A stretch of DNA of 64,000 nucleotides from Nanobdellota archaeon (GTDB taxonomy: Archaea; Nanobdellota; Nanobdellia; Pacearchaeales; JAHJTO01), in the NCBI GenBank assembly GCA_042572295.1, contig JBHPFA010000001.1, positions 79,788 through 143,787 on the forward strand, read 5' to 3'. Made by a program: the position numbers and the translations under genes. Below the pieces are notes generated by a model. It had not been told where the DNA came from. It ran no database searches and saw nothing but the letters and a program-made list of their open reading frames with translations. Positions 9,003 to 47,884 of the stretch are shown here, one piece after another (within the stretch, counting starts at the first letter, position 1; each line of letters begins with the position of its first letter).

Positions 9003-9040
9003 GTTTAAATATCTGATTTTGAATGTTCTATTATAATAAG

Positions 9041-16093: not shown

Positions 16094-16191
16094 ACCCAAA
16101 AAAAATGTTGTCTCTAAACGATGAGAGTATCTCTTTCTTAAGAATCAAAAAGGTTTTTAAAGAAGAAAGTTCTATCTCCGTGAAGAAAAAG

Positions 16192-19100
16192 ATGGTGGAA
16201 AATAGAAATCTCATAAAAGTTTTTGGAACTTTTGTCATCTTAGGGATTCTTTTATGTTTATATCCAGTTATTGCAGATCATGTTGTTACAGTTTTTGATG
16301 GCACTACATCAACTAACTTTGATGAGGATTCATCTTCTCTTTATAACATCACAGTAAACAATACTGATGTAGTAGTTGACTCAAATATAACTCAAGTTAA
16401 TATTACTGTACCTTCTGGTTTTACTATTCAAGCAGAGACTAACGAAACTGAAGGTGAAGAATCTATATTTATTATTGATGGAGACACTTTAAGTTGGACA
16501 AACTTAAGTGTGGGACTTCTTTCAGAGATTAATTATAACTGGAGCCAATTTTTATTCAATGCGACTGCCCCAAATCCTGGATACTATAATCTTTCCGTTG
16601 TAACTTCCAATTCTACAACCATTGTTCAAACAAACATTTCAATTACTATAGATGATATAACTGCTCCTACAGTGAGTTTAGTTTATCCTAATCTCGGAAC
16701 AAACACATCAAATACTGCAATTGATGTAAACCTTACTGTAACTGATGGTGCAGGACTTGGATTGCAAGCTTGTTGGTGGACAAATGATACAGGAACAACA
16801 AATAACTCTGTAACTTGTGGAGATAATATTACAGGACAGACATGGGATGCAGGAGTAAATACTGTAATTTTTTATGCTAATGATACTTCAGGAAATGAAG
16901 GAAGTGGAACTTCTGTATTCACACTTGACACAACTGCTCCTACAGTCACTTTAGTAACTCCAACACTTGGAGCAAATACAACTAATACTATAATTGATGT
17001 AAACTTTACAGTAACTGAGAATGGTGCTGCAGGAATAGGCTCTTGTTGGTGGACAAATGATACTGGAACAACAAATAACTCAATCACTTGTGGAGATAAT
17101 GTAACAGGATTGACTTGGGATGAAGGAATAAATACAGTAATACTTTATGCTAACGATACTGCAGGAAATGAAGGAAGTGGAACTTCTGTGTTTACTTTAG
17201 ATACAACTGCTCCTTCAGTGACTTTAGTAACTCCCGCACTTTACTCAAACACAACAAATAACCAAATCAATGTTAACTTTACATTAACAGATGGAGCAGG
17301 AATCGGATTACAATCTTGTTGGTGGTCAAATGATACAGGAACAACAAATAACTCAATCACTTGTGGAGAGAACATAACTGGACAAGTTTGGAATGCTGCT
17401 ACACAAACAGTTTATTTGTATGCAAATGATAGTTTAGGAAATGAAAATTATTCAACTGCTGCTGTGTTTACAGTTGATAATATCGGACCAACATTGACAC
17501 GTATAACTCCTACTGAAGTTGGAACAAATACAACTAACAACCAATTAGATATTAATTTTAGTGCAGTGGATAGTGGAGTCGGATTAGGTAGTTGTTGGTT
17601 CACAAATAACAGTGGAATAACTAATAACTCAATGGCTTCATGTACTGGAAATTTAACTGGACAGACATGGGATGAGGGAGTTAATTCCATCCAAATTTAT
17701 GCAAATGATAGTTTAGGCAATACAGGAGCAGGTGCAGTTATAACTACTGAATTCACACTTGACACAACAGCTCCAGTTTTAACTTTAGTATCTCCTACAT
17801 TGGGAGCGAATGTGACCAATGCTGAGAATGTAACCTTCACAGTAACTGACGGTGCAGGACTTGGATTAGAAACTTGTTGGTGGACAAATGATACTGGAAC
17901 AACAAATAATACTGTAACTTGTGGAACAAATATTACAGCAGCAGTTTGGGATGAAGGTGTCAATACAGTAATACTTTATGCTAATGATACATTAAATAAT
18001 ATAGGAACAACAACATCTGTGTTTACAGTTGATAGTACACCTCCGGCAGTAGTTCTTGTATCTCCTGCTTTGGCTACAAACACAACAAATACTGTTATTA
18101 ATGTTAACTTTACAGCTTCAGATGTTTCAACAGCATTACAAGCTTGTTGGTGGACAAACAGCAGTGGTGCAGTAAATAATTCTATTACTTGTGGAGCAAA
18201 TATTACAGGACAAACTTGGGATGAAGGATCAAACACAGTAGTTTATTATGTAAATGATACTATGGGTAATGAAAATTCTTCAACTGCTCAATTTACAATT
18301 GATACAACTGGTCCTACATTTGTTTGGGTAAGTCAACCAGCTACTGCAAGTGTTGGAGATAATGTTTCAATGAATGTTACAGTATCTGATGGAGTTCTTC
18401 CAGTAACTGCAAATATTACAATAAACAATACTGTTTATGTGATGACAAATGATGGATCAGACACATTTAACCTAACTTATCAATACATTTCAGCTGTTGA
18501 GTATAATGTAACTGCATGGGATGGATTGGCAAACTCAGCAATTTCAGCAAGTACAACACTTTCAACTACTTCAACAACATCAAACGCACCAAGTGGTGGA
18601 GCTTCACCTCCTACATGGACAGAATTAGATTTAGGAGATCAAACAACTGAGGAAACACAAGAAGTAGTGGATGATGTTAAGGAATTAATAGATGATAAAG
18701 ATGAGGGCTTGATTAAGTCAGCAGTATTAGAAGAAGCAAGAGTCGGTGAAGAGATCAAGTTCACCTTGAAGAAAAGTACAGTTTCTGAAGGACAAGAGCA
18801 CACAGCAACAATTAATAAGATTTCAAGTTCATATATAAAAATGACAATAGAATCAGACCCAATCACATTATTGTTATTCGAAGGAGATTCTAAGAAAGTT
18901 GACACTGATGGAAATGGAAAATATGACTTATTAGTTGTATTAAAAGAGATTGGAAAGACAACAGCAGATGTTGTATTTGCAGAGATAAGAGAAATTACAA
19001 TGACTACCACTGAAGTAGAAGAAGCAGAAGTGGCTGAAGAAGTGATGGAAGAGAAGTTGGAAGAAATAGAAAAGGTTGAAGCAGAAGAAGTGGCTAAGGA

Positions 19101-19224
19101 GAAAGCAGCTTACAACTTTATGGTGTTAGGAATTGCTTTAGCAGTTATAGTCTTGGGTGGAATAATCTATGCAGGATATAGCTTTCGTAAGAAGAAACAT
19201 AAAAAGCATCACAAGAAAAAGTAA
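16192..19224 (+). CDS. Giant repeat-containing, N-glycosylatable surface protein with acidic stalk and C-terminal TM anchor
   Basis: Track ORF starts at 16105. The ATG at 16192 (MVENRNLIKVFGTFVILGILLCLYPVIA) gives a proper signal peptide and sits about 35 nt after TTTTTAAA. Six ~91-aa repeats plus one degenerate copy, a Glu-rich segment, TM FMVLGIALAVIVLGGIIYAGY and tail KKKHKKHHKKK. Confidence 0.75.
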   Translation: MVENRNLIKVFGTFVILGILLCLYPVIADHVVTVFDGTTSTNFDEDSSSLYNITVNNTDVVVDSNITQVNITVPSGFTIQAETNETEGEESIFIIDGDTLSWTNLSVGLLSEINYNWSQFLFNATAPNPGYYNLSVVTSNSTTIVQTNISITIDDITAPTVSLVYPNLGTNTSNTAIDVNLTVTDGAGLGLQACWWTNDTGTTNNSVTCGDNITGQTWDAGVNTVIFYANDTSGNEGSGTSVFTLDTTAPTVTLVTPTLGANTTNTIIDVNFTVTENGAAGIGSCWWTNDTGTTNNSITCGDNVTGLTWDEGINTVILYANDTAGNEGSGTSVFTLDTTAPSVTLVTPALYSNTTNNQINVNFTLTDGAGIGLQSCWWSNDTGTTNNSITCGENITGQVWNAATQTVYLYANDSLGNENYSTAAVFTVDNIGPTLTRITPTEVGTNTTNNQLDINFSAVDSGVGLGSCWFTNNSGITNNSMASCTGNLTGQTWDEGVNSIQIYANDSLGNTGAGAVITTEFTLDTTAPVLTLVSPTLGANVTNAENVTFTVTDGAGLGLETCWWTNDTGTTNNTVTCGTNITAAVWDEGVNTVILYANDTLNNIGTTTSVFTVDSTPPAVVLVSPALATNTTNTVINVNFTASDVSTALQACWWTNSSGAVNNSITCGANITGQTWDEGSNTVVYYVNDTMGNENSSTAQFTIDTTGPTFVWVSQPATASVGDNVSMNVTVSDGVLPVTANITINNTVYVMTNDGSDTFNLTYQYISAVEYNVTAWDGLANSAISASTTLSTTSTTSNAPSGGASPPTWTELDLGDQTTEETQEVVDDVKELIDDKDEGLIKSAVLEEARVGEEIKFTLKKSTVSEGQEHTATINKISSSYIKMTIESDPITLLLFEGDSKKVDTDGNGKYDLLVVLKEIGKTTADVVFAEIREITMTTTEVEEAEVAEEVMEEKLEEIEKVEAEEVAKEKAAYNFMVLGIALAVIVLGGIIYAGYSFRKKKHKKHHKKK
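16663..18309 (+). repeat. Six in-frame tandem repeats of 273-285 bp inside the surface-protein gene
   Basis: Units start at 16663, 16936, 17209, 17485, 17770 and 18043. Consensus is APxVxLVxPxLGxNTxNxxIDVNFTVTDGAGLGLQxCWWTNDTGTTNNSxTCGxNITGQTWDEGVNTVxLYANDTxGNEGxxTSVFTLDTT. A degenerate seventh unit starts at 18310. Confidence 0.9.
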
Positions 19225-20678: not shown

Positions 20679-21632
20679 ATGGGTGATATAATTGTTGTAG
20701 GTAACATAACTAGTGACTTTTTTATGGACACAAAAGTTGCAGAAAGTTTACAAGATAAACAGACAAGTATATGTTATCCTATAAGTTCTAAGATCTTTGT
20801 TAAGAAGATGAATATGTTTACTGGTGGAGGAGGATATAACTCTTCTGTCTCTTTTTCACGTTTAGGATTAAAACCTTCCTTTTTAGGGAAGATAACTAAA
20901 GATGCTCAAGGTAAAGGGCTGTTGAAAGCTTTAAGAAAAGAGAAAATTAAATTTATTGGAAGTTTAGGAAATGGAATAGGTTCATACTCTGTAATACTTG
21001 ACTCTGCAGAACATCATAGGACTATTTTTGTTTTCAAAGGGAAAGATAATCACTTACTTAAGAAAGATTTCAAACATCCTAAAACAAAATGGTATTATTT
21101 TGCATCTATGATTGGAGAATCAATGAAAACTCAGATAGAGATTGCAAAACATGCTAAAAAAGTCGGTTCAAAGATTGCTTATAATCCTAGTGAATATTTG
21201 ATTAGAGAAGATAAGGAAAAGGTTTTGAGATTAGTCAAGTTAGTTGATGTTTTGATATTAAATAAAGAAGAAGCAGATCTTATTGTTGGTAAAGAGAAAG
21301 TTGCTGAGAAAATAAGAGCTTTAGGTCCTGAAATAGTGTGTATCACTGACGGTAAGAATGGTGCTGTTGCTTATGAAGGAGATAAAGTATATGGTGTGCT
21401 TCCAAAGAATGTTAAAGTGAAAGAAACTGCTGGAGCCGGAGATGCATTTGCTTCTGGATTTTTGGCAGGGTGGATAAAAAGGGAAAACATGAAAGAAGCT
21501 TTAGAATTTGGAGTAACAAATGCTGAAAGTGTTATTGGTCATTTGGGAGCTACAAATAATTTATTGACTTGGCAACAAATGCTTTCAAAAGTTAAGAAAA
21601 ATCCACACAGGATAAAGGTTTCAAGATGGTGA
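20679..21632 (+). CDS. PfkB-family sugar/sugar-phosphate kinase
   Basis: N-terminal GGGGYN and C-terminal TAGAGDAFASGFLAG signatures of the ribokinase/PfkB family. First gene of the aldolase-TIM cluster. Confidence 0.8.
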   Translation: MGDIIVVGNITSDFFMDTKVAESLQDKQTSICYPISSKIFVKKMNMFTGGGGYNSSVSFSRLGLKPSFLGKITKDAQGKGLLKALRKEKIKFIGSLGNGIGSYSVILDSAEHHRTIFVFKGKDNHLLKKDFKHPKTKWYYFASMIGESMKTQIEIAKHAKKVGSKIAYNPSEYLIREDKEKVLRLVKLVDVLILNKEEADLIVGKEKVAEKIRALGPEIVCITDGKNGAVAYEGDKVYGVLPKNVKVKETAGAGDAFASGFLAGWIKRENMKEALEFGVTNAESVIGHLGATNNLLTWQQMLSKVKKNPHRIKVSRW

Positions 21633-22363
21633 AGAGGAAAATAACAAAAAAAGGCAGAGTATTGGCTCTTGCTTATGATCAGGGAATGGAACATGGTACT
21701 GATGATTTTAATGATAAGAATGTAAATCCAGAATATATCTTTGAGATTGCAAGAAAAGGAGGAGTTACTGCAATTGTTGTGCAGAAAGGGATTGCTGAAA
21801 GATATTATGATAAGAAAAAAGATGTTCCACTTATTGTTAAGTTAAATGGAAAAACTAAGTTGAGAAAAGGAGAAGCATTGTCTTTACAAGTCTGTTCTGT
21901 TAAAGAAGCTTTGAGACTTGGTGCTTCAGCTGTGGGTTATACTGTTTATTTTGGTTCTAAATATGAAGCTCAAATGATGAAAGAGTTCGGAAAGATTGAA
22001 GAAGAATGTGATAAAGCAGGGATTCCTGCTATATTATGGGCATATCCGCGTGGAAAAGATATAAAGAAAATAACTCCTAGAATAATTGAATATGCTGCAC
22101 GTGAAGGTTTGGAATTAGGAGCTGAGATGGTTAAAGTAAATTATACTGGTTCTTTGCAGAGCTTCAAGAAAGTTGTTCGCGCTGCTGGAAGATGTAAAGT
22201 TGTGAGTTTAGGTGGTGGAAAAAGGCCTGAGAAAGAACTTTTAGTGCAAGCTAGAGACACAATCAAAGCAGGTGGTGTTGGAATGATTGTTGGAAGAAAT
22301 ATCTGGCAACATAAAGACCCTATTGCTTTTATTAAGAAACTTAAGAAGGAGATTTGGAAATGA
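21626..22363 (+). CDS. fbaB: Class I fructose-bisphosphate aldolase (archaeal DhnA/FbaB type)
   Basis: LAYDQGMEHG, LIVKLNG, VKVNYTG and VGRNIWQ blocks typical of the DhnA-family TIM barrel. Confidence 0.8.
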   Translation: MVKRKITKKGRVLALAYDQGMEHGTDDFNDKNVNPEYIFEIARKGGVTAIVVQKGIAERYYDKKKDVPLIVKLNGKTKLRKGEALSLQVCSVKEALRLGASAVGYTVYFGSKYEAQMMKEFGKIEEECDKAGIPAILWAYPRGKDIKKITPRIIEYAAREGLELGAEMVKVNYTGSLQSFKKVVRAAGRCKVVSLGGGKRPEKELLVQARDTIKAGGVGMIVGRNIWQHKDPIAFIKKLKKEIWK

Positions 22364-25071: not shown

Positions 25072-26502
25072 ATGGTAGATATTAGAACAGGATTGACTTT
25101 TTCTGACGTATTATTAGTTCCTAAAAGAACTCCTTTGAATTCTAGAGCAGAAGCTGATCTAAGTACAAGATTTACTAAGAACATCAGGTTGAATGCTCCT
25201 TTAGTCAGTGCTAATATGGCTACTGTTACTGAACATAAAATGGCTATAGCAATGGCTCGTGAAGGTGGTTTGGGAGTAATTCATCAATTCAATACAATTG
25301 AAGAGCAAGTTGAAGAGGTTAAGAAAGTAAAAAGAAGCACAAGTTATGTTATTGAGAATCCTCTTTCAGTTGGTTCTGGTTTGACTATTGAAGAAGCAGA
25401 TAAAGTCATGTTAGAGACAGGGGTTACAAGTCTATTGATAGTGGATAATAGAGAATTACAAGGAATATTCACTAAAAGAGATTATTTGTTCATAAATGAT
25501 CATTCAAAGAAACTTTCCGAAGTGATGACTCCTAAAGAAAAGCTAGTTACAGCTGATTGGGGGATTAGTACAGATGAAGCTAAGCACCTCTTGTATAAGA
25601 ATAGGATTGAGAAGTTGCCTTTGTTAGAAAATGGAAAGTTAAAGGGATTGATAACTACCCAAGATATTGTTAAATTGGAGAAATGGAAGGATGCAGCAAG
25701 AGATGAAAAAGGAAGCTTATTGTGTGGAGCTGCTATTGGAGTTAAAGATACTTTGGAAAGAGCTGAAGCTTTGATTAAAGCTGGAGTTGATGTTATTGTT
25801 TTAGATATTGCCCATGCACATTCTGATTTGATGATTAATAGAGTTAAAGAGTTTAAGGAAAAGTTTCCATCTGTTGATTTGATGGTTGGGAATATAGGGA
25901 CTGGAGATGCAGCTAGAGATCTGATTGAAGCTGGAGCTGATGGATTGAAAGTTGGAATTGGTCCAAGTCCTGTTTGTACTACAAGAGTTATTTCTGGAAG
26001 CGGAATGCCCCAAATAACTGCAATAATGGATGTCTGTTCTATTGCTAAATTATATGGAGTACCTGTATGTGCAGATGGAGGGATGAGTTATCCTGGAGAT
26101 GCTGCAAAAGCGATAGGTGCTGGAGCAAGTACTGCTTTTTCAGGAACTTTCTTTGCAGGAACTGATGAAGCTCCTGGAATGATAATAATGAAGAATGGTA
26201 AGAGGTATAAGAGATATGCTGGAAGCGCTTCTTATGAGAGCAGTCATGAAAGGAAAGAGAGATCTGAAAATAAGAGGTTAAAAGAGAAGATTGATGTGTT
26301 TGTAGAAGGTGTTTCAAATCTTGTTGACTATAAAGGGCCTGTTGAAGGTGTTATAAGATCAATTCTTAAAGGAATTAAAAGTGGTGCTAGTTATTGTGGA
26401 GCAATAAATATACAAGAGATGCATAAAAGGGCAGAGTTTGTAAGAATCACTTCAAGTGGATGGCAAGAAAGCCTTTCTAGAGGCCAGAGATTATCTGAGT
26501 GA
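25072..26502 (+). CDS. guaB: IMP dehydrogenase (with CBS subdomain)
   Basis: LTFSDVLLVP, VSANMATVTE and the catalytic loop GIGPSPVCTTR. CADGG and a CBS pair insert are present. Confidence 0.85.
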   Translation: MVDIRTGLTFSDVLLVPKRTPLNSRAEADLSTRFTKNIRLNAPLVSANMATVTEHKMAIAMAREGGLGVIHQFNTIEEQVEEVKKVKRSTSYVIENPLSVGSGLTIEEADKVMLETGVTSLLIVDNRELQGIFTKRDYLFINDHSKKLSEVMTPKEKLVTADWGISTDEAKHLLYKNRIEKLPLLENGKLKGLITTQDIVKLEKWKDAARDEKGSLLCGAAIGVKDTLERAEALIKAGVDVIVLDIAHAHSDLMINRVKEFKEKFPSVDLMVGNIGTGDAARDLIEAGADGLKVGIGPSPVCTTRVISGSGMPQITAIMDVCSIAKLYGVPVCADGGMSYPGDAAKAIGAGASTAFSGTFFAGTDEAPGMIIMKNGKRYKRYAGSASYESSHERKERSENKRLKEKIDVFVEGVSNLVDYKGPVEGVIRSILKGIKSGASYCGAINIQEMHKRAEFVRITSSGWQESLSRGQRLSE

Positions 26503-27423
26503 TTCTTTAGGAGCATAAGTCCTAAATGCTTCTTTATTGAAAAGTTCCTTTAAAGCATAAATATCAAACTTATGGTCTGTTTTATTGAATTCAAAATAAG
26601 TATTCTTGAAATGCCTTCCAGTAAGTGCTAATGTTCCTAGAATATCCAACATTTTGTGCCTTACTAGCTCATTTCCATCATATCTGAATCCTCTCATGTT
26701 TGGATCTCCATTTGATTCCTCACTTAGAAAACAATAGTTTGTCTTAGTTGCACCATGGATTCCTAAACTTCTTGTAATGTCCACTAAAGATTCTGGTAAT
26801 TTGTATTTTGTCTTTATAGGAGGTCTTGCAGACATTACTTCTTTTTCATAATTTGAAGGGCTTACATCGAAAAGAAATTCTCTGTTCCCTATGGCTTTAT
26901 GGTTGTAAAAAGCCTTGCTTCTTATATTAAATCCATTACCATGCATCACTTCTAGGCTGCAAGGTTCTTTTTTATGAGTATTATCTTTATTGCTCCATAA
27001 CAATGTTGGAGATTCTTTAGAATACTCCCAAAACTCTTTTGGAGAGTCTTGTATGTATAAACCTGCTCTTTTTAGTGCTTCAAAATATTCCTTTCCACAG
27101 TTATCTGTTGTTGGGCAAGTATCATCTGATAATTCAATTACTAAATTGTCTATGCCTAAAGCATAAACTGAAGATAAGATGTGTTCGACAATATGGATTT
27201 TTGCATTGCCATTCTCTACAGCAAGAGTCCTTCCAAACGTTCTTTGGACTTGTTTAGCGTTTTCTAAGTTAGCCTCAACTAAATCTTTCCCTAATAGAAA
27301 AGCTAATCCACTGTCTTGTTTTGCAGGGTGGAACACTGCTTGATTGTTTAGATTGTTGAATATATTTATTCCTTTCACCACCACTGGGCGATTAATAGTA
27401 GTTTGTAAATCCGGTCTACTCAT
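26491..27423 (-). CDS. LpxC-fold (UDP-3-O-acyl-GlcNAc deacetylase-like) zinc deacetylase homolog
   Basis: [23 protein letters not shown] aligns with E. coli LpxC [39 protein letters not shown] aligns with EFVRHKMLDAIGDLYM, so the Zn ligands His/His/Asp are conserved. Confidence 0.65.
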   Translation of the reverse strand: [310 protein letters not shown]

Positions 27424-29034: not shown

Positions 29035-29081
29035 GTTTTATAAACACATTTTTTCTTAAATAATCGTGCAGTAATGCATAT

Positions 29082-29154
29082 GGCTCCGTAGCTCAATGGC
29101 TAGAGTACTGGCCTTTTAAGCCAGGTGTTGCGGGTTCGAGTCCCGTCGGAGTCA
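29082..29154 (+). tRNA. tRNA-Lys(UUU)
   Basis: Acceptor GGCTCCG/CGGAGTC. D arm GCTC-AATGGCTA-GAGT. Anticodon arm CTGGC-CTTTTAA-GCCAG. T arm GCGGG-TTCGAGT-CCCGT. Discriminator A. 73 nt. Confidence 0.9.
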
Positions 29155-29155
29155 T
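29143..29155 (+). repeat. att-like core copy 0 (inside tRNA-Lys 3' end)
   Basis: CCGTCGGAGTCAT. The 18-nt version GAGTCCCGTCGGAGTCAT starts at 29138. Confidence 0.85.
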
Positions 29156-29214
29156 GTACCCTTTTGACTGATTCAAGAGATGCCAACTATTTCTTAGAAA
29201 TCTTCTAAAATTAT

Positions 29215-30186
29215 TTAATTTTCAAAGATCATTTTCTTTGCTGGGAAAAGGTGATCTTCACCCATTATTGCAGTCTCTACTTTATTGATAACTTTTGAAA
29301 ATTCTTTTGTTAAATCCGAAATAATCTCAAGATAATCATGATAACTTTCACTCATAATCTCTAACTCTATATCCCAAGGACTTATTTGTTTTACCAAATG
29401 AATTATTTTTGGATTTCTCTTTGAATAATTCATCAATCTTTTTTCATCTTCTATTGCCAAATTCTTGAAATATAAAAAAGTTTTATAGAATTCATACCCT
29501 AAAAGATTAAAGTCTATCTTAGCAGCATATCTAAAGATGATCCCCTTATCTCCTAATTTCTTCATCCTACTTCTTATAATATCTATTGTGGAGTTATACT
29601 TTCTTGCAATATCAACGAGATTGATTCTGGCATTGCTGAATAATTCTTTGAGTATCTTCTTCTCTACTTCATCCAAGATGTAATCTCCTTGTATGCCAAA
29701 CATAACTTTCCATTCTGTTTCTGATTCATAAAGAAAAGTTTTATCATGCACACTAACATCTACCAATACCCCTGTATAACTTTCTAAAATAAGATCTTTG
29801 AATTTTGAAAATAATTCATTTTTCAGTTCAAAGAATTCTCTGTTTGACTTTACAAAATATGTTAGGCCAGCATTCCAAGCTCCCTCTGCAATTCCAAGCC
29901 ATAAAAGCCTTTTATCTCTCTTTACAAATTCTACAAATTTCTTCTTTTGTTCAGGCTTATTAGAAAATTTAAGATATATCTTCGCAGTAGTATACCCTAC
30001 TTTTGTAGGATCTATCCAAATAGTATATCCTTTTAGGACTCCTTTATTCTCTAGTTGTTTAATTCTATACCTTACTGATTCCTTAGATTTCCCAATTATT
30101 TTTGCTAATTTTGTTTCTGGAATTCTACAATTCCTATCTAGCTCAAAGAGGATCCTTCTATCTGCCTTATCTAAGTTTACTACCAT
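29215..30186 (-). CDS. Tandem-duplicated Lrp/AsnC-family transcriptional regulator
   Basis: Two HTH+RAM-like units: LDKADRRILFELDRNCRIPETKLAKIIGKSKESVRYRIKQLENKGVLKGY and LDEVEKKILKELFSNARINLVDIARKYNSTIDIIRSRMKKLGDKGIIFRY. Confidence 0.75.
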   Translation of the reverse strand: MVVNLDKADRRILFELDRNCRIPETKLAKIIGKSKESVRYRIKQLENKGVLKGYTIWIDPTKVGYTTAKIYLKFSNKPEQKKKFVEFVKRDKRLLWLGIAEGAWNAGLTYFVKSNREFFELKNELFSKFKDLILESYTGVLVDVSVHDKTFLYESETEWKVMFGIQGDYILDEVEKKILKELFSNARINLVDIARKYNSTIDIIRSRMKKLGDKGIIFRYAAKIDFNLLGYEFYKTFLYFKNLAIEDEKRLMNYSKRNPKIIHLVKQISPWDIELEIMSESYHDYLEIISDLTKEFSKVINKVETAIMGEDHLFPAKKMIFEN

Positions 30187-30286
30187 TTTAGTAAATAATC
30201 GTTTATATTTATAAATATTTCCATTTTTTGACTAAAATACTGAAGAAACTTTAATATATAAAGTATTACTATCCAGTAATAATAAA

Positions 30287-31021
30287 ATGGGAATTATAAA
30301 AAACCACAAGACCTTAATAGAAAAACTAAAAGAATCAATTAGTGAAACTAGTAAAGAGCTCATTGCTATTCAAGCAGGCCATTTCCCTCTTCGCCTTAAT
30401 AAGGGGAAAAGAATTCTTGAAGAAGGGTTAGATACATGGGGAGAATTTAGTGAGTATACTTTTGATGTAGGGTGTGAACTTGCAAAATACTCTCAAGAAT
30501 TAGGAAAAAAGACAAGAGTTTACATTGTTTGTGATGACTTACGTTATGCGAAAGGGTATAACCTCTCCCGTGAAAAAGATCCGAGACTCATTAAATGGCA
30601 AAAAGCAAGATTAAAATTTTATAGGGACCAATCAAAGACTCTGCCAAATAAATATGAGGAAATTTTGAAAAAGTATCACTTGGGCAATGAATTAATTGTT
30701 AAACCAAATAATCCAAAAAATAATTCTAATTATTTTTCAGAGGTAAGTTTAAGAGACAAGAATAAAGATAGGCTATGTCTTAGCTATTCAGCATGTAAAG
30801 ATGAATACCTTGGATTATTAGACAAATATATCTCTGAAGAAAAAGATTATTTCATTAGTTTTATCCCAAATATCTGCTCCCATGCAATACAAGATGCGAT
30901 CTGGGTAGATAAGCCAAATTTGAAAACAAGTCATATTTTTGTGGATACAGGGGTTAATTCCCCTCTAAAGTCAATTGATAGGCAATATATCGATGAAGAT
31001 ATCACAGTCTATAGAAAGTAG
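30287..31021 (+). CDS. Hypothetical protein (element A cargo)
   Basis: 244-aa ORF divergent from the Lrp-like gene across an AT-rich palindromic TATA region. No motif recognised. Confidence 0.55.
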   Translation: MGIIKNHKTLIEKLKESISETSKELIAIQAGHFPLRLNKGKRILEEGLDTWGEFSEYTFDVGCELAKYSQELGKKTRVYIVCDDLRYAKGYNLSREKDPRLIKWQKARLKFYRDQSKTLPNKYEEILKKYHLGNELIVKPNNPKNNSNYFSEVSLRDKNKDRLCLSYSACKDEYLGLLDKYISEEKDYFISFIPNICSHAIQDAIWVDKPNLKTSHIFVDTGVNSPLKSIDRQYIDEDITVYRK

Positions 31022-31095
31022 GAATCTATAAATACTGGTGCCACTTTGGTGCCTTATAATCATTTGGCATCTCTGTGATCAGTCACAATGGTGTA

Positions 31096-31113
31096 GAGTC
31101 CCGTCGGAGTCAT
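31096..31113 (+). repeat. att-like core copy 1
   Basis: GAGTCCCGTCGGAGTCAT, identical to tRNA-Lys 29138-29155. Confidence 0.85.
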
Positions 31114-31244
31114 CTACTCTCATGGTAAATCCAAGAGTCACAAACCTGTACAAGTCCTGTATAAGTTTAAGCCTTAATTCTAACATAAACTAAACAGTTT
31201 AAAAGGATTGTCGAGAGTGAGTGGATGTGTTAAGCATTGGCGAG

Positions 31245-31637
31245 CTAATCTGATTTTATTGGTCCTCTTGACAACAATTCTAATTTAACCACCTTTTTAC
31301 AATAATCAAAGAATGTTCTCCGCTTCACCCCTATTGCAGCCGCCCCAATATATCCCATTCCTCTTTCAACTTGAATACAAGATCTTCTTAATACATGCGC
31401 CCTTATCTTATCTTCTAACTTTAGATCTACTGGAGATGTTACTATCTTGCTATCCACCTTTGAAAAGAAGAAAATGTTATGCTCCCTGTATGCTGGGGGG
31501 CTTGTCTTCTGGTGAATTGTATAAACTGAGATATATCTGTTTAAACCTAAAATTTCAATATAGTTTGTTTGTAATCCACGAATATCTCCTTCTATTTCTT
31601 CAAGATACATTCTTTGAAATCGATTTAAATTTTTCAT
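31245..31637 (-). CDS. 130-aa minimal tyrosine-recombinase-like protein (tentative)
   Basis: GAGAGGAG RBS and TTTATA/TTATAAAT boxes lie upstream. Candidate catalytic residues in order: GLNR, HQK, AHVLRR (HxxR), then Tyr in FFDY 31 residues after the His. No N-terminal DNA-binding domain and no second His. Confidence 0.35.
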   Translation of the reverse strand: MKNLNRFQRMYLEEIEGDIRGLQTNYIEILGLNRYISVYTIHQKTSPPAYREHNIFFFSKVDSKIVTSPVDLKLEDKIRAHVLRRSCIQVERGMGYIGAAAIGVKRRTFFDYCKKVVKLELLSRGPIKSD

Positions 31638-31796
31638 TTTACTCCTCTCAGAATTAGGTTCTGAGGCACCAACACCTCTAATTTATAAGAAGGTTAGGGG
31701 TATAAAAGCTTTCCCAAGACTTACAATTTTATATTTAACCTGTATAAAACCTGTATAACTTTGTGTCTCTCTAATTTACCACAACTATCCAGTGTG

Positions 31797-31809
31797 CCGT
31801 CGGAGTCAT
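31797..31809 (+). repeat. att-like core copy 2
   Basis: CCGTCGGAGTCAT. Confidence 0.8.
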
Positions 31810-31900
31810 TCCAAAATTTCTATGGCCCTTAAGTGTCCTCTTCAGAAGTTTTATATATCTCTCTAACGAGGAATATAATATCAAAAGGGAGGCTGATTAA

Positions 31901-32056
31901 ATGATAGAATATAAAACAATGGGTTGGTTACAGCTAATTGGGGCTGTTGTTGCAGGTTTTTTTGGATATCAAGATAGTAATTGGGGTGTTTTAACTCTTG
32001 CAATAGTGCTACTATTAACATCCATACACCACCTAACCACTAAAAAGAAACATTAA
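31901..32056 (+). CDS. 51-aa two-helix membrane peptide
   Basis: Not in ORF track. GGGAGG lies 8 nt upstream of the ATG. Translation is MIEYKTMGWLQLIGAVVAGFFGYQDSNWGVLTLAIVLLLTSIHHLTTKKKH. Confidence 0.45.
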   Translation: MIEYKTMGWLQLIGAVVAGFFGYQDSNWGVLTLAIVLLLTSIHHLTTKKKH

Positions 32057-32090
32057 TTTTTAATTAGTAAATGAAAGGGGGAAATGATAA

Positions 32091-32735
32091 ATGAAAAAAA
32101 TATTTATTTTATTAGCAACTTTAGTTTTAGCAAGTGCTTTTGTTTTAGCTCAAGGTCAAGGAATTCATGAACCTGGAACTGGCATTGAAAATCCTGAATT
32201 AAAAGCTGTAGGCCAAGGAACTGGACAAGGCTTAGAAGAGGGTGAAGTAATGGGTGCCGGAGAAGGTAAAAAATTAAGAGCTGAGGCTGGAACCTATAAA
32301 AATCAGGCAGGTATGCAAATGCAATTACATAGGCAAGAAAATGGCCAATGTAGGCTTGAAGTTGAAGGGGTTATTGCAGATTGTCCGAATAACATGACTC
32401 AAGAGATGTTCCAAAATAGGACAAGGTTACATACAATGCTTTCAAATGGAAGGGATGCAGAAATTAAAGTTATGCCAAATACTGCTTCAGAAACTGCTTT
32501 ACAGAGATTGAGGTTAAGAAATTGTGACGAAGATTGTCAAATTGAACTTAAAGAAGTAGGTGCTGGAGAACAAGTAAGAGCAGCTTATGAAATGAAAGCT
32601 CAAAGAAACTCAAAAGTTTTTGGATTATTCAGGGCGAGAATGCAAGTTCAAGCACAAGTTGATGCTGAAACTGGAGAGTTGATTCAAACCAAGAAACCTT
32701 GGTGGGCTTTCTTAGCAACAGAAGCTGAAGAGTAA
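32091..32735 (+). CDS. Secreted protein, unknown function
   Basis: Signal peptide MKKIFILLATLVLASAFVLAQG. Gly/Gln/Glu-rich N-terminal region and two Cys pairs. C-terminal block VDAETGELIQTKKPWWAFL. Confidence 0.6.
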   Translation: MKKIFILLATLVLASAFVLAQGQGIHEPGTGIENPELKAVGQGTGQGLEEGEVMGAGEGKKLRAEAGTYKNQAGMQMQLHRQENGQCRLEVEGVIADCPNNMTQEMFQNRTRLHTMLSNGRDAEIKVMPNTASETALQRLRLRNCDEDCQIELKEVGAGEQVRAAYEMKAQRNSKVFGLFRARMQVQAQVDAETGELIQTKKPWWAFLATEAEE

Positions 32736-32774
32736 TTTTTTAATTTATTTTTTCTTTTTCTTTATTTTTTTATT
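32736..32774 (+). terminator. Long oligo-T tract after 32091..32735
   Basis: TTTTTTAATTTATTTTTTCTTTTTCTTTATTTTTTTATT. Confidence 0.45.
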
Positions 32775-33065
32775 TTATTGACTTGGGTCTCTACTCTCTA
32801 TCTTAATCGCTTTTCCTTTTACTATTGCTTCTGCTATTTTCTTTCTTCCAGATTTTAGAATTCTTGATAATGTAGGCTGAGAAACATTCATTTTCTTTCC
32901 TGCCTCTTCTTGAGGAATTTCATTTAAATCTACTAATCTAATTGCCTCAAATTCTGGCATGCTTAGGACAGTTTCTTCTAGATCAATCATCCTTATACCT
33001 GCAGGTTTAAAATATGAAGAGTTAGGCTCTCCCCTAACTCTCCTTCTAATACAAGGTCTAGGCAT
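32775..33065 (-). CDS. DUF134 (UPF0251) HTH DNA-binding protein
   Basis: MPRPCIRRRVRGEPNSSYFKPAGI...LSMPEFEAIRLVDLNEIPQEEAGKKMNVSQPTLSRIL. Start taken at the ATG at 33065, because the track's longer start at 33104 would overlap the upstream DUF5320-like ORF. Confidence 0.75.
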   Translation of the reverse strand: MPRPCIRRRVRGEPNSSYFKPAGIRMIDLEETVLSMPEFEAIRLVDLNEIPQEEAGKKMNVSQPTLSRILKSGRKKIAEAIVKGKAIKIESRDPSQ

Positions 33066-33066
33066 T

Positions 33067-33213
33067 TTATTGGTTATTTCTTCTTCTACCAAGACCTCTT
33101 CCACAAGGCCCTAAACCTTTTCCAACTACAGGTTTTGCATCTTTGCAATCTCCTAATTGTCTTCCAGTTTTAGGCCCTTTTCCATCAGGTCCTGTTCCGT
33201 CTTTATTTGGCAT
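33067..33213 (-). CDS. DUF5320-like small Gly/Pro-rich protein
   Basis: Not in ORF track. GGAGGT lies 8 nt upstream. Translation is MPNKDGTGPDGKGPKTGRQLGDCKDAKPVVGKGLGPCGRGLGRRRNNQ. The stop is 1 nt before the DUF134 start, and DUF134/DUF5320 pairs are a known association. Confidence 0.6.
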   Translation of the reverse strand: MPNKDGTGPDGKGPKTGRQLGDCKDAKPVVGKGLGPCGRGLGRRRNNQ

Positions 33214-33380
33214 ATTATTGTACCTCCATGTTATGAATACCTATTCATTACTACTATATATACTTTTTGGTTATCCCTTAATAAGTCCTGATTATAGAAA
33301 ATTATTTAAACTCCAGCGACGTTAAATGATTAACAGGCACATTAAACTCTTGTAAGAGTCATAGATTTTCTGTAATGGCA

Positions 33381-33393
33381 CCGTCGGAGTCAT
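33381..33393 (+). repeat. att-like core copy 3
   Basis: CCGTCGGAGTCAT. Confidence 0.8.
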
Positions 33394-33420: not shown

Positions 33421-34599
33421 CTAGAATGTCTTTCCGAGAGTTAGTGAATGAAGATTTCCTTTAAAATCACATAACTCTCTGGCAATATTTCCTAAAGACC
33501 TTATTTGAGAACCACTAGTATAAACATCATCAAATAAAATAACATTTTTGAACTCTCTGAGGGATGTTCCTTTCTTTACGCCAGTGGTTGAGTAATGCCC
33601 TTCTCTGTTTCCCCCTTCGTGTGAGGAAGATTTTGGATATACTCTATAAAAAACCCTTTTTGATAAACTATTGCCAAAATGATTTGAATTAAGACTTTTT
33701 GTAATTACATTATTGATATCATAAAAATAGCAAAACTCTGGAAGAGAGTTGGGTGCTGCAAGAATTGCTGTTTCTCCTACAAGATTCATTGAGTCTATCT
33801 TTTTTAGAAGGGTGCTATAAAAATTTTGAATAACATCCTTAAATCTCTTTCCTTCTTTGATCCTTCCATTGAAAAAATATTCGCTTCTTTGCCCCTCTTT
33901 TATTTTTGATCTTCTAATTTCTTTACTTTCTTTGAACCTTAAAACATCTGAAGCAAAGTCGTATTTGGGATTATTTGCATAAGGATATTTAGTAACAGGA
34001 TAGTAATCATCTAGGAAAGATAACTTTATTTCAGGGTCTCTTAAGGGGGCTGTTTCTAGAAATGCATATTTTTCAGTGTTTTCTCTTTTGTTATAATTTA
34101 TTTTTCCTTCCCCAAACTTTTCTATTGCTTCTTCCAGCTCAGAAATATCTGAAACAATAATGGAGGGTTCTGATTTTGCCAGTCTTTTGGGAGTACTTTC
34201 TCCCCAAGTAACTGCAATAGAAGGTATTTCGAGCCCATGGGCAGTTAGCATATCTATAGGATTATCTCCAATTATTATTGCATCTAAAAACATTGAGGAT
34301 TTGTGTAATAGCTCTGCCTTATTTGGTTTTCCCAGTGAGGCATTTATTTTTATTTCAGAAAAACCATGTTTTCTTAGTAAAACCTCTGAATAGTCATGTG
34401 GAGAGTTTGTTACTATCTCTGCTTTTTTATGTTTACTAAGTTTATTTACTAGTTTAACCAACTGATCATAATAGGGCTTAGTAGGGACCTTATCTGGATT
34501 CTCCACCACAAATTGTTTTCCCTCTCTTGTGCAATTGAATGGTCTAAGTCTACTTGTATCAATTAATGTTCCATCCAGGTCAAATAAGCATTCTCTCAT
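33421..34599 (-). CDS. HAD-phosphatase domain fused to ComFC-like phosphoribosyltransferase domain
   Basis: N-terminal HAD motifs are LFDLDGTLIDT (I), IVTNSP (II) and K...IIGDNPIDMLTA (III/IV). The C-terminal PRTase PRPP loop is NVILFDDVYTSGSQIRSL, as in ComF/ComFC. Confidence 0.65.
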   Translation of the reverse strand: MRECLFDLDGTLIDTSRLRPFNCTREGKQFVVENPDKVPTKPYYDQLVKLVNKLSKHKKAEIVTNSPHDYSEVLLRKHGFSEIKINASLGKPNKAELLHKSSMFLDAIIIGDNPIDMLTAHGLEIPSIAVTWGESTPKRLAKSEPSIIVSDISELEEAIEKFGEGKINYNKRENTEKYAFLETAPLRDPEIKLSFLDDYYPVTKYPYANNPKYDFASDVLRFKESKEIRRSKIKEGQRSEYFFNGRIKEGKRFKDVIQNFYSTLLKKIDSMNLVGETAILAAPNSLPEFCYFYDINNVITKSLNSNHFGNSLSKRVFYRVYPKSSSHEGGNREGHYSTTGVKKGTSLREFKNVILFDDVYTSGSQIRSLGNIARELCDFKGNLHSLTLGKTF

Positions 34600-35462
34600 T
34601 TTTTGTTAATCCTTTTGATATTCTCTTTGTAATTTTCAAGCCAATTATGGTTCTTTAAGAAATTATTGGCTAAAACATAGATTGGCTTGTCCTGTTCTGC
34701 ACAAGACTTTATAGCATGTTGGGTTCCAGACTTATCTGAAGCCTTTATTACAACAATCCCTTCTGTAGAAAGTGAGACTGTTGTGAGGTTTCTATGTGCA
34801 AAATAAGAACTAAACGTTCTTATGCCGATAGGGTACTGGGAAACTAGTAAGTGCTCTTTAGCGATTATTTCCTGCAATTTTTTGTTTGAGCTAGGGTAAT
34901 ATTGATTGAGAGGAGTTCCTAAAACTGCAATTGTGCTTTTTCCAGCTTCAACTGCTTTAGTATGGGCAAGAGTATCACAACCTTTTGCCAGCCCGCTAAC
35001 AATAACATAATCTTTCTCCAGAAGTCTTTTCAATACATTAAATGCTTCCCCATATGCTGCTCGGTCTTTGTTTGGATAAATGTGTCTTGTTCCAACAACT
35101 GCAATATTTTCCCTATTTAGTAAACTTTTATCTCCCCTTGTATAAATTACAGGAGAATTTCCTTCTTTTTTCATGCTTTCAGGGAAGTTAGAATCATTTA
35201 CTGTTAGGACATCAAAGTCAAAATCTACCTTGTCTAGTGTGCTTATGACTTTTTCTATTCCTTTGATACTCCTTATAGAGTCCCCTACAGATAAAACATC
35301 TGGATTAAGGCTTTTGTAGATATTCTCAAAGCTCCCATATTCTAGAAGTTTTTCTCTAACAGAATCATTAGAACTTTTGGTTCCAATATTCATTTTTTTT
35401 GAGTAAATTAGGGCTGCATGAAACAGGCTTTCGTTTTTACTCTTATTTTCATATAGGGCCAT
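34596..35462 (-). CDS. dprA: DprA/Smf-like (SLOG Rossmann) protein
   Basis: IAVVGTRHIYP...VIVSGLAKGCDTLAHTKAVEAGKSTIAVLGTPLNQYYPSSNKKL...LLVSQYP...FAHRNLTTVSLSTEGIVVIKASDKSGTQH follows the DprA Rossmann-domain consensus. A 4-nt overlap links it to the downstream HAD-PRTase gene. Confidence 0.7.
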   Translation of the reverse strand: MALYENKSKNESLFHAALIYSKKMNIGTKSSNDSVREKLLEYGSFENIYKSLNPDVLSVGDSIRSIKGIEKVISTLDKVDFDFDVLTVNDSNFPESMKKEGNSPVIYTRGDKSLLNRENIAVVGTRHIYPNKDRAAYGEAFNVLKRLLEKDYVIVSGLAKGCDTLAHTKAVEAGKSTIAVLGTPLNQYYPSSNKKLQEIIAKEHLLVSQYPIGIRTFSSYFAHRNLTTVSLSTEGIVVIKASDKSGTQHAIKSCAEQDKPIYVLANNFLKNHNWLENYKENIKRINKK

Positions 35463-35709
35463 TATTTAAGAACAAGATTGAGGCACTTGTTAATCCACCA
35501 CCTCAGTTAATTAACTAATTTGAAGGATTTAAACTTAATGTATTGTAAAAGATAATTATCCTCAAATCAGATAATGCTTTTAAAATGAAATATCTTTAAG
35601 ATTCCAAATAAAAGTAGAGTTTATGGAGATTGTGATTTTGATGGAATTAAAAGAGAGGTTAGTCCACTCATTAAAAAAATAAAAGAAGAAGAAAATAAAT
35701 AAAACTAAA

Positions 35710-37205: not shown

Positions 37206-38525
37206 ATGAGCAGATATTTAAGAGGTGTTCAGCCTCAGACTGTTTCTGAGATAAATATAATGGTAAAGAAGATAGTAGATTATAGTCCAGAAGCGATTAA
37301 AGGAGTTTATGATATATGTAATGGTGATTTATATGTTAAAAATAAGAAGAGTCTGAAGCCTTTGTTAAGCCATTTAAAGGATGCTGGATATAAGGTTAAA
37401 GATACAAGTTCTGATAAATGTTTTGATGGAAAGAAACCTCCAAGAAAAGTTCAAGAAAAGGAAGGGTCCTCACTTTGGCATGGTAGTTTGACTGAAAGGG
37501 TGCTTAAAAGAAAGGGAGAATGTGGATCTTGTCATAAATTGATGGATTTGAGGAAAGCTTGGAAAGAGGGACATAAATGTGGGAAATGTGGAGATGTCAC
37601 TTATAAAAAATTCCCCGATGGAAGCAGGATTAATTTCAATGTTGTAAACTATGACAATGAAACTGTTGGGAGCGTCATGAGAGATCTTACCTTGATAGTC
37701 CACAGTTATGATGATAAAAAGAAAAGATTGAATTTGTATGCTGATCATAAAGACTACAAAGGAAAACCAAGAGAATTTAGCATGCGTGGACTTAGGAAAC
37801 CAGTAGAAGATTCATATGATGATCTTTCAACTATGATAAAGCTATATCCAAAGACTTTTTCTGTAGGGAAAGTGAAGAAAACAAAAGTGGTTTCAGTCCC
37901 TTATGACATTAAAGACTCTTATTTAAAAGAACATGGGATAAACACTTGTGAAAGAAGTGGAGAATTAAAAAATTTTGATCAGGTAAAAGTATTCAAGGGA
38001 AAGAAGATGGATGAATGGGCCCAATTACCAATTCCTGATAGCGTAAGTATATATGAAGCCTGGCATTGGGCACCATTAAAACCAAGTCCTGGATTATATC
38101 AAGAAATAATGCATGCTGCTGGGCAACCACCAAGAAAAGATTATTATCATCAAGATGGAAGACCTGCTTTTTCAGATTGTATTATTGGAAGAATGCTTAA
38201 GTTTGTGGAGCATTTTACAACTGTTGATGAAAAAATGGTTGCTCGTCATTTAGATGCAAGATTATCTGGACCTGGGTTGATTGATGTTCTTGCAAAAATC
38301 ACAGGACATACAAAATTTATCGAGACTGCTCCCAATCCAATGGGTGCGTTAAGTATCGTTGCAAAGGCTCTTTCAGGAAAAAGGTTAACTGAAAATGAAT
38401 TAGTTCAAGGAGAAAAAAGTCTAATTGCCGATATGGAAGGTGATAATGTCGTAGGAGAAACATTGGGTGCTTACCTATACCAGGAAAGGGCAAAGAAGTT
38501 GAGAAAAAGGAAAAAGAGAAGATAG
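37206..38525 (+). CDS. Hypothetical 439-aa protein with internal zinc ribbon and basic tail
   Basis: CGSCHKLMDLRKAWKEGHKCGKCGD. C-terminus is KKLRKRKKRR. No other motif recognised. Confidence 0.55.
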   Translation: MSRYLRGVQPQTVSEINIMVKKIVDYSPEAIKGVYDICNGDLYVKNKKSLKPLLSHLKDAGYKVKDTSSDKCFDGKKPPRKVQEKEGSSLWHGSLTERVLKRKGECGSCHKLMDLRKAWKEGHKCGKCGDVTYKKFPDGSRINFNVVNYDNETVGSVMRDLTLIVHSYDDKKKRLNLYADHKDYKGKPREFSMRGLRKPVEDSYDDLSTMIKLYPKTFSVGKVKKTKVVSVPYDIKDSYLKEHGINTCERSGELKNFDQVKVFKGKKMDEWAQLPIPDSVSIYEAWHWAPLKPSPGLYQEIMHAAGQPPRKDYYHQDGRPAFSDCIIGRMLKFVEHFTTVDEKMVARHLDARLSGPGLIDVLAKITGHTKFIETAPNPMGALSIVAKALSGKRLTENELVQGEKSLIADMEGDNVVGETLGAYLYQERAKKLRKRKKRR

Positions 38526-46824: not shown

Positions 46825-47232
46825 ATGGGATTAAAACTTGATCAGCAATCAATTCAATGTTTAACTTTGTTTTCAAGGATAGCAAATGTTAGAACAAAAG
46901 AATGCTTTGATTACAATAACACTAAAGTCTTTATCGTTAAACGTGAACTTCTATCAAAAGCTGTTGGTGAAAAAGGAAGGAATGTTAAACGATTAAGCAA
47001 TTTACTCAGAACTAAAGTAAGAATCATTCCAGATTCTGAACTTGCGGATTTTATAAAAGACGTTATTCAGCCTGTGAAGTTTAAGAAAATACTTATTGAG
47101 AATAATATGATTACAATATTTGCTGGTCAACAAGCAAAAGCATCACTTATTGGAAGAAATAAAGTGAGATTGGAAGAGCTTGCTAATATTCTTAAGAGAC
47201 AATATGGTGTAAAGTCTTTGAGGATTGTTTAA
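46825..47232 (+). CDS. nusA: Archaeal NusA-like KH-domain transcription termination/antitermination protein
   Basis: Two KH-like units with GxxG-type loops (AVGEKGRNVKRL, LIGRNKVRLEEL). About 135 aa. Canonical position after rpoA. Confidence 0.75.
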   Translation: MGLKLDQQSIQCLTLFSRIANVRTKECFDYNNTKVFIVKRELLSKAVGEKGRNVKRLSNLLRTKVRIIPDSELADFIKDVIQPVKFKKILIENNMITIFAGQQAKASLIGRNKVRLEELANILKRQYGVKSLRIV

Positions 47233-47884
47233 TTTTTTTAGAATAACCATTACTGTTTACTATTTTTTCTACTGAATCTAAAACAAAAGGTGTACCTTCC
47301 AAATTCTTTAACCAAGTATGAGCACGATAAACCGTTTTTGGGCTAACTCTTTGATTCCAAGGAGAATCAAATAAAATTGCCTTGCCAGACTTTAATGAAG
47401 GAAGACATTCTTTGACTGTTGGAAGTGCATCTTCAATGAGAATATCTATTTCTTTATCTTTACAAATTCCCGATTTAGAATTACTAGGGCCTCCAGGACC
47501 ATATTTGTTTGTTAACAAGATATCTGAAAAAATTCCTTGGAAGTTTGTTTCAACAAATTTCTCAGTGCTCTTTTGCATATAATCTGGCCTGTTGCTGATT
47601 ATATATAACTCTGCACCTTTCCCAACAAGAATTTTCATTGCTTCAAAAGCACCTTTTCTAGGTCTTAGGTTTGAATCAGCCATCCCTCCTTCTTTTTGAA
47701 ACTCATCAATTATTGGCCTTACTGTCTTATCATCTAATCCAAAAATCTTATAATCAAACTTATACATCTCTTCTAATCTGAAGGTCTTATTCAATTTTTT
47801 ACTCATGAAAGGAAGGTATTTCTCATGATAGTCATTACAAACATCATCTAAATCTATTCCTATTTTCAGCTTTTTGTATATCAT
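47192..47884 (-). CDS. HAD-superfamily 5'(3')-deoxyribonucleotidase-like phosphatase
   Basis: KIGIDLDDVCNDY (DxDxV motif I), IISNRP (motif II) and IDILIEDA (motif IV). Its 3' end overlaps the nusA 3' end by 41 nt (convergent). Confidence 0.6.
   Translation of the reverse strand: MIYKKLKIGIDLDDVCNDYHEKYLPFMSKKLNKTFRLEEMYKFDYKIFGLDDKTVRPIIDEFQKEGGMADSNLRPRKGAFEAMKILVGKGAELYIISNRPDYMQKSTEKFVETNFQGIFSDILLTNKYGPGGPSNSKSGICKDKEIDILIEDALPTVKECLPSLKSGKAILFDSPWNQRVSPKTVYRAHTWLKNLEGTPFVLDSVEKIVNSNGYSKKIKQSSKTLHHIVS

Follow-up and report, generated by a model that had tools for sequence, protein, structure and literature searches.

A DprA-like gene coupled to a HAD–phosphoribosyltransferase gene in a DPANN archaeon: a probable ShosTA-family toxin–antitoxin module

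A 64,000-nucleotide stretch of contig JBHPFA010000001.1 from a Nanobdellota archaeon (assembly GCA_042572295.1; positions 79,788 to 143,787; hereafter, the window) carries two overlapping open reading frames (ORFs), both on the minus strand, which encode a DprA-like protein of 288 amino acids (aa) and a 392-aa protein with an N-terminal HAD-type hydrolase domain and a putative C-terminal phosphoribosyltransferase (PRTase) domain. The NCBI annotation names them "DNA-processing protein DprA" and "HAD family hydrolase". An earlier inspection of the DNA sequence (the sequence-only reading) had offered two interpretations, a DNA-uptake or recombination-mediator module and a nucleotide-centred defence pair situated at an integration hotspot. 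ShosTA is a two-gene toxin–antitoxin (TA) system that protects Escherichia coli against the phages T7 and lambda (Rousset et al. 2022, as "DprA+PRTase"; Millman et al. 2022). We consider, with a probability of roughly 80%, that the pair in the window is a ShosTA-family type IV TA module on a DPANN (Nanoarchaeota) chromosome. The second of the two earlier interpretations was thus essentially right, as seen from matches to both the ShosA and ShosT models of PADLOC and from agreement with the published ShosTA architecture and gene order.

Operon layout and domain architecture

The two ORFs, their 4-nt overlap, and all of the motifs quoted earlier were confirmed in the window translations and in the minus-strand sequence. 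Read directly, the minus-strand junction is AAAAAATGAGAGAA, in which the stop codon of the upstream gene and the start codon of the downstream gene share the letters ATGA. Such an overlap is typical of a translationally coupled operon, here with the antitoxin gene first. The long start of the 288-aa ORF is backed by residues H15 and L18, which are conserved among its homologs. The promoter and terminator scan used on the window was based on sigma-70, a bacterial model that is uninformative for an archaeon.

The 288-aa protein matched the Pfam family PF02481 (DNA_processg_A) with an E-value of 6.8e-46 (156.5 bits; cutoff, 29.6), which upholds its designation as DprA-like, and the PADLOC ShosA model (PDLC03961) with an E-value of 1.6e-55. 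Its score was higher on the ShosA profile (186.5 bits) than on the dprA profile (125 bits), and its match to PADLOC PsyrA (3.8e-26) was well behind that to ShosA. It did not reach the cutoff of the dprA equivalog TIGR00732 (125 bits; cutoff, 191.15) or that of NF008007 (101 bits; cutoff, 495), and its LDcluster4 match was also below the cutoff (20.5 vs. 26.3 bits). The AlphaFold2 (AF2) model of the protein, with a predicted local distance difference test (pLDDT) score of 95.3, consisted of five N-terminal helices and a Rossmann domain. In Foldseek, the model aligned over its full length with pneumococcal DprA (3UQZ; template modelling [TM] score, 0.70), which was its best PDB match in both sequence and fold, and also over its full length with ShosA (8ZVA; TM, 0.70; 309 columns). 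ShosA is composed of a five-helix SAM domain and a DprA Rossmann domain. Judged by its number of helices and by the structural alignments that cover the whole protein, the predicted five-helix domain of the archaeal protein is taken as the probable counterpart of the SAM domain. Of the two flanking domains that had been proposed as marks of a bona fide DprA, the N-terminal one was therefore present in the model in a SAM-like form, whereas the C-terminal winged-helix (DML1) domain of long DprAs was absent, the AF2 model ending at residue 288, right after the Rossmann domain. The absence of the winged helix is not decisive against DprA because pneumococcal DprA also lacks it.

In the 392-aa protein, PF13419 (25.9 bits; cutoff, 23.8) and TIGR01549 (HAD-IA; 26.4 bits; cutoff, 23.3) both scored just above their cutoffs, and all four HAD motifs (D7/D9/T11, T64-N65, K91, and G111-D112..D116) were present and conserved in the homologs, in agreement with the earlier description of a complete HAD domain. 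At least 90% of the 79 family members retained each of the residues D7, D9, K91, G111, D112, and D116. From motifs I–IV and TIGR01549, the N-terminal domain is predicted to be a phosphohydrolase of subfamily IA of the HAD superfamily. The C-terminal half gave sub-threshold PRTase matches only (PF00156, E = 0.24; PRTase-CE, E = 0.5; pyrE, E = 0.024), and its match to the comF profile TIGR00201 (E = 0.0043; 17 bits) was below the cutoff of 233.55. However, a phosphoribosyl pyrophosphate (PRPP) loop, FDDxxTSGSQ, was recognizable, in which D357 was invariant and D358, T361, and Q365 were conserved in at least 90% of the 79 sequences. Weak matches to PRTase-CE and Pribosyltran recurred in 22 and 15 of the 79 family members, respectively, and one member matched PRTase_3 ("ComF-like"). 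ShosT (PDLC03962) was the only PADLOC model matched by the toxin (1.4e-5; residues 237–368 only), and no PsyrT model in PADLOC was matched. The assignment as a PRTase is based on the PRPP loop, the recurring weak family hits, the PADLOC ShosT match, and the AF2 model. Consequently, the PRTase part of the earlier label "ComF/ComFC-like PRTase" stood and the ComF part did not, and "ComFC-like" is the least secure of the labels attached to the pair.

For the toxin, 12 homologs were used to build an AF2 model, which had a pLDDT of 91.2. When it was compared with the PDB using Foldseek, the ShosT structures 8ZVD, 8ZVC, and 8ZVB were the only two-domain matches (441–454 columns; E ~1e-6), whereas all of the non-ShosT matches were limited to the HAD half (~200–240 columns). 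ShosTA structures were solved in 2025–26 (8ZVA for ShosA; 8ZVB–D for ShosT; 9VZO and 9W2P/Q), and E. coli ShosT is composed of an N-terminal HAD-like pyrophosphatase (residues 1–164) and a C-terminal non-canonical PRTase (165–424) (PMC11961720, PMC12961424). Because these papers describe HAD-like and PRTase domains in one protein, the fusion in the window, which had been regarded as an unrecognised combination, is the ShosT architecture. That view was out of date, and Rousset et al. (2022) had already labelled the DprA partner "HAD/PRTase_3" (construct pFR105). In the alignment, residues D357/D358 of the archaeal toxin correspond to D331/D332 of E. coli ShosT (VIDDFCTEG), the double alanine substitution of which (D331A/D332A) abolished toxicity (PMC11961720). 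In summary, the analysis establishes the domain architecture of the pair, its conserved catalytic residues, its operon coupling, its conserved gene pairing, and its membership of the ShosTA family by profile and fold.

Homologs and their genomic contexts

The toxin has 11 close full-length homologs with 33–46% identity, and a profile search identified 108 relatives at E ≤ 1e-30 among 1.84 billion representative proteins; these fell into two length classes. We examined eight related loci of DPANN archaea and of metagenome contigs (L001, L003–L006, and L047–L049), several of which are named Pace-, Woese-, or "archaeon" in their sources and some of which have no taxonomic assignment (L004 looks bacterial), together with bacterial loci from E. 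coli (JZNL01000037; L007) and Pseudomonas (L008/L009). A DprA-like gene stood beside a HAD-containing toxin homolog in all eight related loci and in the two bacterial loci (10/10). The toxin homolog was mostly located directly downstream of the DprA-like gene and abutting it, with a divergent arrangement in two of the eight loci. The order of antitoxin then toxin, with the genes abutting or overlapping, was observed in L001, L003, L006, L048, and L049.

Competence genes (comEC, comEA, pilus) were found neither in the 10 homolog neighborhoods nor in the flanks of the pair within the window. The contexts comprised phage tail genes, integrases, MazEF, and an accessory island. The E. coli copy has phage tail-fibre genes as neighbors, in a prophage region, the Pseudomonas copy belongs to an island that also carries Multi_ubiq, ThiF, and BubE genes, and phage-like genes neighbor the pair in L004. 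In L003 (5313–9263), a tyrosine integrase gene is located two genes upstream of the ShosTA-like pair, and in L049 (5001–7663), a Pacearchaeota-type contig, a MazE/PemK TA pair directly follows it. Overall, the contexts of the pair are accessory or mobile, and its distribution is patchy over two domains of life.

The antitoxin was conserved much better than the toxin between relatives, and it shared 45–49% identity with proteins from E. coli, Serratia, Dickeya, Pseudomonas, and Alteromonas. Immediately downstream of the antitoxin, E. coli and Pseudomonas carry a gene for a 439–441-aa protein without a Pfam match, and the 439-aa partner in E. coli is a full-length homolog of the archaeal toxin (BLASTP, 4e-26 and 27% identity; hhalign, 99.96% over 387 columns). 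The toxin homologs matched the PADLOC ShosT model with E-values of 2e-10 to 4e-11. In a rough neighbor-joining tree without support values, the gammaproteobacterial antitoxins formed a single clade among the DPANN sequences, which indicates probable inter-domain transfer and is compatible with either direction. The E. coli variant in L007 is rare, given that a megablast search with this pair found no match in 5,426 complete E. coli genomes. Searches for the toxin with tblastn found nothing in GenBank phages and only HAD-only matches in PLSDB plasmids, and a Foldseek search against viral structures returned HAD nucleotidases only. Scans of genome and viral contig collections with the toxin alignment returned HAD-only proteins; because matches to the motif-I pattern common to HAD proteins dominated them, these scans yield no taxonomic or viral information.

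Proposed mechanism, alternative readings, and genomic setting

By analogy with the E. coli systems, the pair would be toxic, self-neutralised, triggered, and antiviral in its archaeal host in the following manner. The 392-aa toxin would bind PRPP in its PRTase domain and transfer or consume phosphoribosyl groups, and the fused HAD domain would remove the pyrophosphate (or phosphate) product, pulling the PRTase reaction forward; together, these activities would unbalance the nucleotide pool and interfere with DNA replication. The 288-aa DprA-like protein would be made first from the shared transcript and, rather than binding to the toxin, would bind single-stranded DNA (ssDNA) and a recombinase, thereby offsetting the damage. 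Once host expression is shut down by a virus, or once viral ssDNA intermediates accumulate in large amounts, the antitoxin function would be lost and the toxin would halt replication, resulting in abortive infection.

Several observations weigh against placing the pair in the ShosTA family or against a direct transfer of the E. coli mechanism to it. A sequence link between the toxin and characterised ShosT was sought with phmmer, hmmsearch (with 12- and 79-sequence profiles), and hhalign, but profile alignment was confined to the HAD region (hhalign probability, 68–73%; hmmsearch E, 6.5e-4 to 0.018). The PADLOC ShosT match of the toxin is modest, and in Foldseek its identity to E. coli ShosT was 13–14%, with a whole-chain TM of 0.25–0.32, a low value that is tentatively attributed to a different inter-domain orientation. 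Because only the HAD region aligns by sequence, the link to ShosT rests on the architecture, the partner gene, Foldseek, and PADLOC. In E. coli ShosA, residues K200 and R206 are needed for RecA binding and antitoxin activity, and they align with S191 and Q197 in the archaeal antitoxin. As Q197 is invariant across the subfamily, bacterial members included, the recombinase interface, if any, must differ from that of E. coli ShosA. Archaea use RadA, not RecA. The archaeal antitoxin also stops some 40 residues short of the C-terminus of E. coli ShosA (288 vs. 327 aa), so that the extra C-terminal helix and unstable tail of the latter, which Pu et al. linked to triggering, have no counterpart. Finally, no other recognised defence gene flanks the pair within the window.

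A more specific possibility is put forward tentatively and considered doubtful at present. In this DPANN-centred subfamily, the HAD domain, in contrast to its degenerate E. coli counterpart, may have full Mg-dependent phosphatase activity, so that the toxin would act as a two-step drain from PRPP and base to nucleotide to nucleoside (or as a pyrophosphate-removing one). For an archaeon that depends on salvage, such a drain would be particularly deadly. The antitoxin would then need to work without RecA, via RadA or a recombinase-independent route. If this were true, the RecA-centred neutralisation model of ShosTA would not be general. Given that the model needs RecA, that archaea lack RecA, and that the HAD site is intact, the subfamily would be a good test case for the generality of the E. 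coli mechanism.

The position of the pair relative to putative attachment (att) sites was also considered. The tRNA-Lys(ttt) gene is located at 29081..29155, and the 13-nt core of its 3′ end, CCGTCGGAGTCAT, occurs exactly at 29143, 31101, 31797, and 33381, i.e., four times against 0.16 expected. The last core runs to 33393, at a distance of 28 nt from the stop end of the 392-aa gene (33421), as had been reported. The core copies bound three short segments (window 29081–33393) with an AsnC-type helix-turn-helix gene, a DUF134 gene, and ORFs of no known function. Neither an integrase nor a second defence system was found with Pfam, PHROGs, and PADLOC among the ORFs between the att copies and to the right of the pair. 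As Pfam and PHROGs detect no integrase, the three segments have the appearance of tandem integrations that have decayed. A role for the pair as cargo of an att-bounded element was rejected because there is no att copy to its right. Of the proposed integration hotspot, the adjacency to the att array is borne out, but the pair sits beyond the last att copy, and neither an integrase nor a second defence system was found beside it; the att position is treated as context only.

Three other explanations of the pair were weighed. In a natural-transformation or recombination-mediator module, DprA would load a recombinase onto ssDNA entering the cell, and uptake would be aided by a ComFC-like PRTase. 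This would account for the strong PF02481 domain, for pneumococcal DprA as the best PDB match in sequence and fold, and for the weak comF match and the single "ComF-like" family member, but the dprA and comF scores are both below their cutoffs, the ShosA profile outscores the dprA profile, the toxin begins with a HAD domain, and comEC and pilus genes were found in none of the 10 homolog neighborhoods. The DNA-uptake interpretation of the sequence-only reading is hence highly improbable, and the two genes annotated as DprA and HAD hydrolase are better read as a ShosTA-type abortive-infection module than as a sign that this DPANN archaeon is naturally competent. A housekeeping role in the nucleotide salvage of a host-dependent archaeon, with the PRTase making a nucleotide from a scavenged base, the HAD domain trimming it, and a SLOG/LOG-like protein processing nucleotides, is very unlikely, even though salvage genes abound in the window, none of the HAD catalytic motifs is degraded, and the family is common in DPANN. 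The distribution is patchy and the contexts are accessory, with close ShosA homologs (45–49% identity) in a prophage region and in a Pseudomonas accessory island; moreover, the standard salvage PRTase profiles (pyrE and PF00156) gave sub-threshold matches only, and the partner has DprA motifs and a sub-cutoff LDcluster4 match.

The remaining explanation accepts a ShosTA-type TA module but assigns it mainly to the addiction or stabilisation of the variable tRNA-Lys island, not to antiviral defence. TA modules commonly stabilise integrated elements, which counts in favor of this role, as do the 28-nt distance from the last of the four att copies, the integrase two genes away in L003, and MazEF directly after the pair in L049. 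However, the pair lies outside the att-bounded segments, with no att copy to its right, the island has no integrase, and characterised ShosTA relatives protect 10^6-fold against T7, so we regard a mainly stabilising role as unlikely. The addiction and antiviral roles are not mutually exclusive and are compatible with one molecular mechanism. We therefore retain the reading of the pair as a ShosTA-family defence module, the features of which are listed in Table 1.

Table 1. Features of the ShosTA-like locus, in window coordinates
Feature	Position	Strand	Basis
shosA-like antitoxin gene, 288 aa	34596..35462	-	PF02481, PADLOC ShosA, AF2, Foldseek
Antitoxin domains: five-helix N-terminal (SAM-like), aa ~7–78; DprA-type Rossmann, aa ~84–285; without C-terminal winged helix			
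shosT-like toxin gene, 392 aa (stop codon within coordinates)	33421..34599	-	PADLOC ShosT, AF2, Foldseek, DprA-like neighbor
Toxin HAD-type hydrolase domain, aa 1–165	34105..34599	-	PF13419, TIGR01549, conserved residues
HAD motif I, D7-x-D9-x-T11	34567..34581	-	
Toxin PRTase domain, aa ~190–392	33424..34032	-	PRPP-loop conservation
PRPP-loop residues D357-D358	33526..33531	-	
ATGA shared by the stop and start codons, linking the two genes as an operon	34596..34599	-	Sequence read
AT-rich intergenic region upstream of the shosA-like gene, presumed promoter region	35463..35709	-	Sequence only
Last of four tRNA-Lys 3′-end att cores, CCGTCGGAGTCAT	33381..33393	+	Context only

Elsewhere in the window, salvage genes were found at 20679–22363, 25072–26502, 47192–47884, and 56430–57122, comprising a PfkB kinase with a DeoC aldolase, IMPDH, an NT5C-type 5′-nucleotidase, and a thymidine kinase. 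This concentration fits a salvage-dependent DPANN lifestyle and bears on how damaging a PRPP-consuming toxin would be. The window also contains split rpoB, rpoA', EF-2, and EF-1alpha genes and an intron-bearing tRNA, a content consistent with a nanoarchaeal source. A 133-nt Rfam tRNA match at 10478–10610 (+), which was missed by ARAGORN, is presumably an intron-containing archaeal tRNA. A strong match to LpxC (UDP-3-O-acyl-GlcNAc deacetylase; PF03331, 3.9e-40) at 26491–27423 (-) is unexpected, as this is a lipid A enzyme in an otherwise archaeal contig. Four large ORFs on the plus strand, at 16105–19224, 1044–2786, 9023–10432, and 37206–38525 (1039, 580, 469, and 439 aa, respectively), had no Pfam match at 1e-5 (0.01 for the 439-aa ORF).

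Probable place in the ShosTA family and comparison with known systems

The sequence-only reading had also held that DprA and ComFC are not expected core genes in archaea, a view that is likewise out of date, as surveys place ShosTA among the most frequent archaeal defence systems. In a DefenseFinder-based survey, ShosTA was present in more than 25 of 45 archaeal taxa, was among the eight most frequent archaeal systems, and was more frequent than in bacteria; surveys also reported it in 15.95% of archaeal virus-host genomes and found it enriched in Asgard archaea, and the table of Millman et al. (2022) contains 14 archaeal instances. Since archaeal ShosTA is already on record, the pair in the window is a further and unexceptional member of a known family whose frequent occurrence in archaea is documented, and standard tools would flag it. 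Its usefulness to the field is modest, and the remaining interest is mechanistic, in a divergent subfamily with an intact HAD site in a host without RecA.

Compared with bona fide DprA (3UQZ), the window antitoxin shares the two-domain fold (TM, 0.70) and the GTR and SGxAxGxD motifs. ComFC of competent bacteria also has a type I PRTase fold, whereas the window PRTase is fused to a HAD domain, and the pair as a whole lacks a competence gene context and is below the equivalog cutoffs. PsyrTA/RqlHI likewise has a DprA-like antitoxin, and its PRTase domain is implicated in toxicity, but the window toxin has no PsyrT match and the window antitoxin scores far higher on ShosA than on PsyrA.

The ShosTA systems of E. 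coli APEC O1 and KTE181 are two-gene operons with the same antitoxin-then-toxin order as the window pair; in the cloned APEC O1 system, the DprA-like gene encodes protein 1 and the PRTase gene protein 2. Both the APEC O1 and the window antitoxins have a five-helix N-terminal domain and a DprA Rossmann domain without a winged helix, both toxins combine a HAD-fold hydrolase at the N-terminus with a PRTase at the C-terminus that has a DD pair in its PRPP loop, and APEC O1 ShosTA and window-type pairs both occur in accessory, mobile genomic contexts. Relative to the CHARACTERISED system (APEC O1), however, the window antitoxin shows no more than 28% identity to ShosA over 181 aa, and the window toxin, at 13–14% identity to ShosT, is profile-alignable in the HAD region only. 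The APEC O1 toxin starts with MYLKAVIFSIADVVLPLTSN, with no DxD in its first 20 residues, and has GRSQED as motif IV, whereas the window family keeps DxDxT and GDxxxD. The pyrophosphatase activity of E. coli ShosT is weak and Mg-independent, and the effect of its R56A mutant was marginal (PMC11961720), both of which fit the missing DxD and the GRSQED motif of the APEC O1 toxin.

A gammaproteobacterial ShosTA-like subtype with intact HAD motifs (L007, 6001–8184; L008/L009, 6001–8185) is nearer to the DPANN pairs than APEC O1 ShosTA is. Its toxins are approximately 45 aa longer than the window toxin as a result of insertions and a C-terminal tail. These gammaproteobacterial pairs (284 + 439 aa in L007; 292 + 441 aa in L008/L009) have antitoxins 45–49% identical to that of the window and toxins homologous over their full length, and they share with the window pair the HAD and PRPP motifs, the gene order, and the matching PADLOC models.

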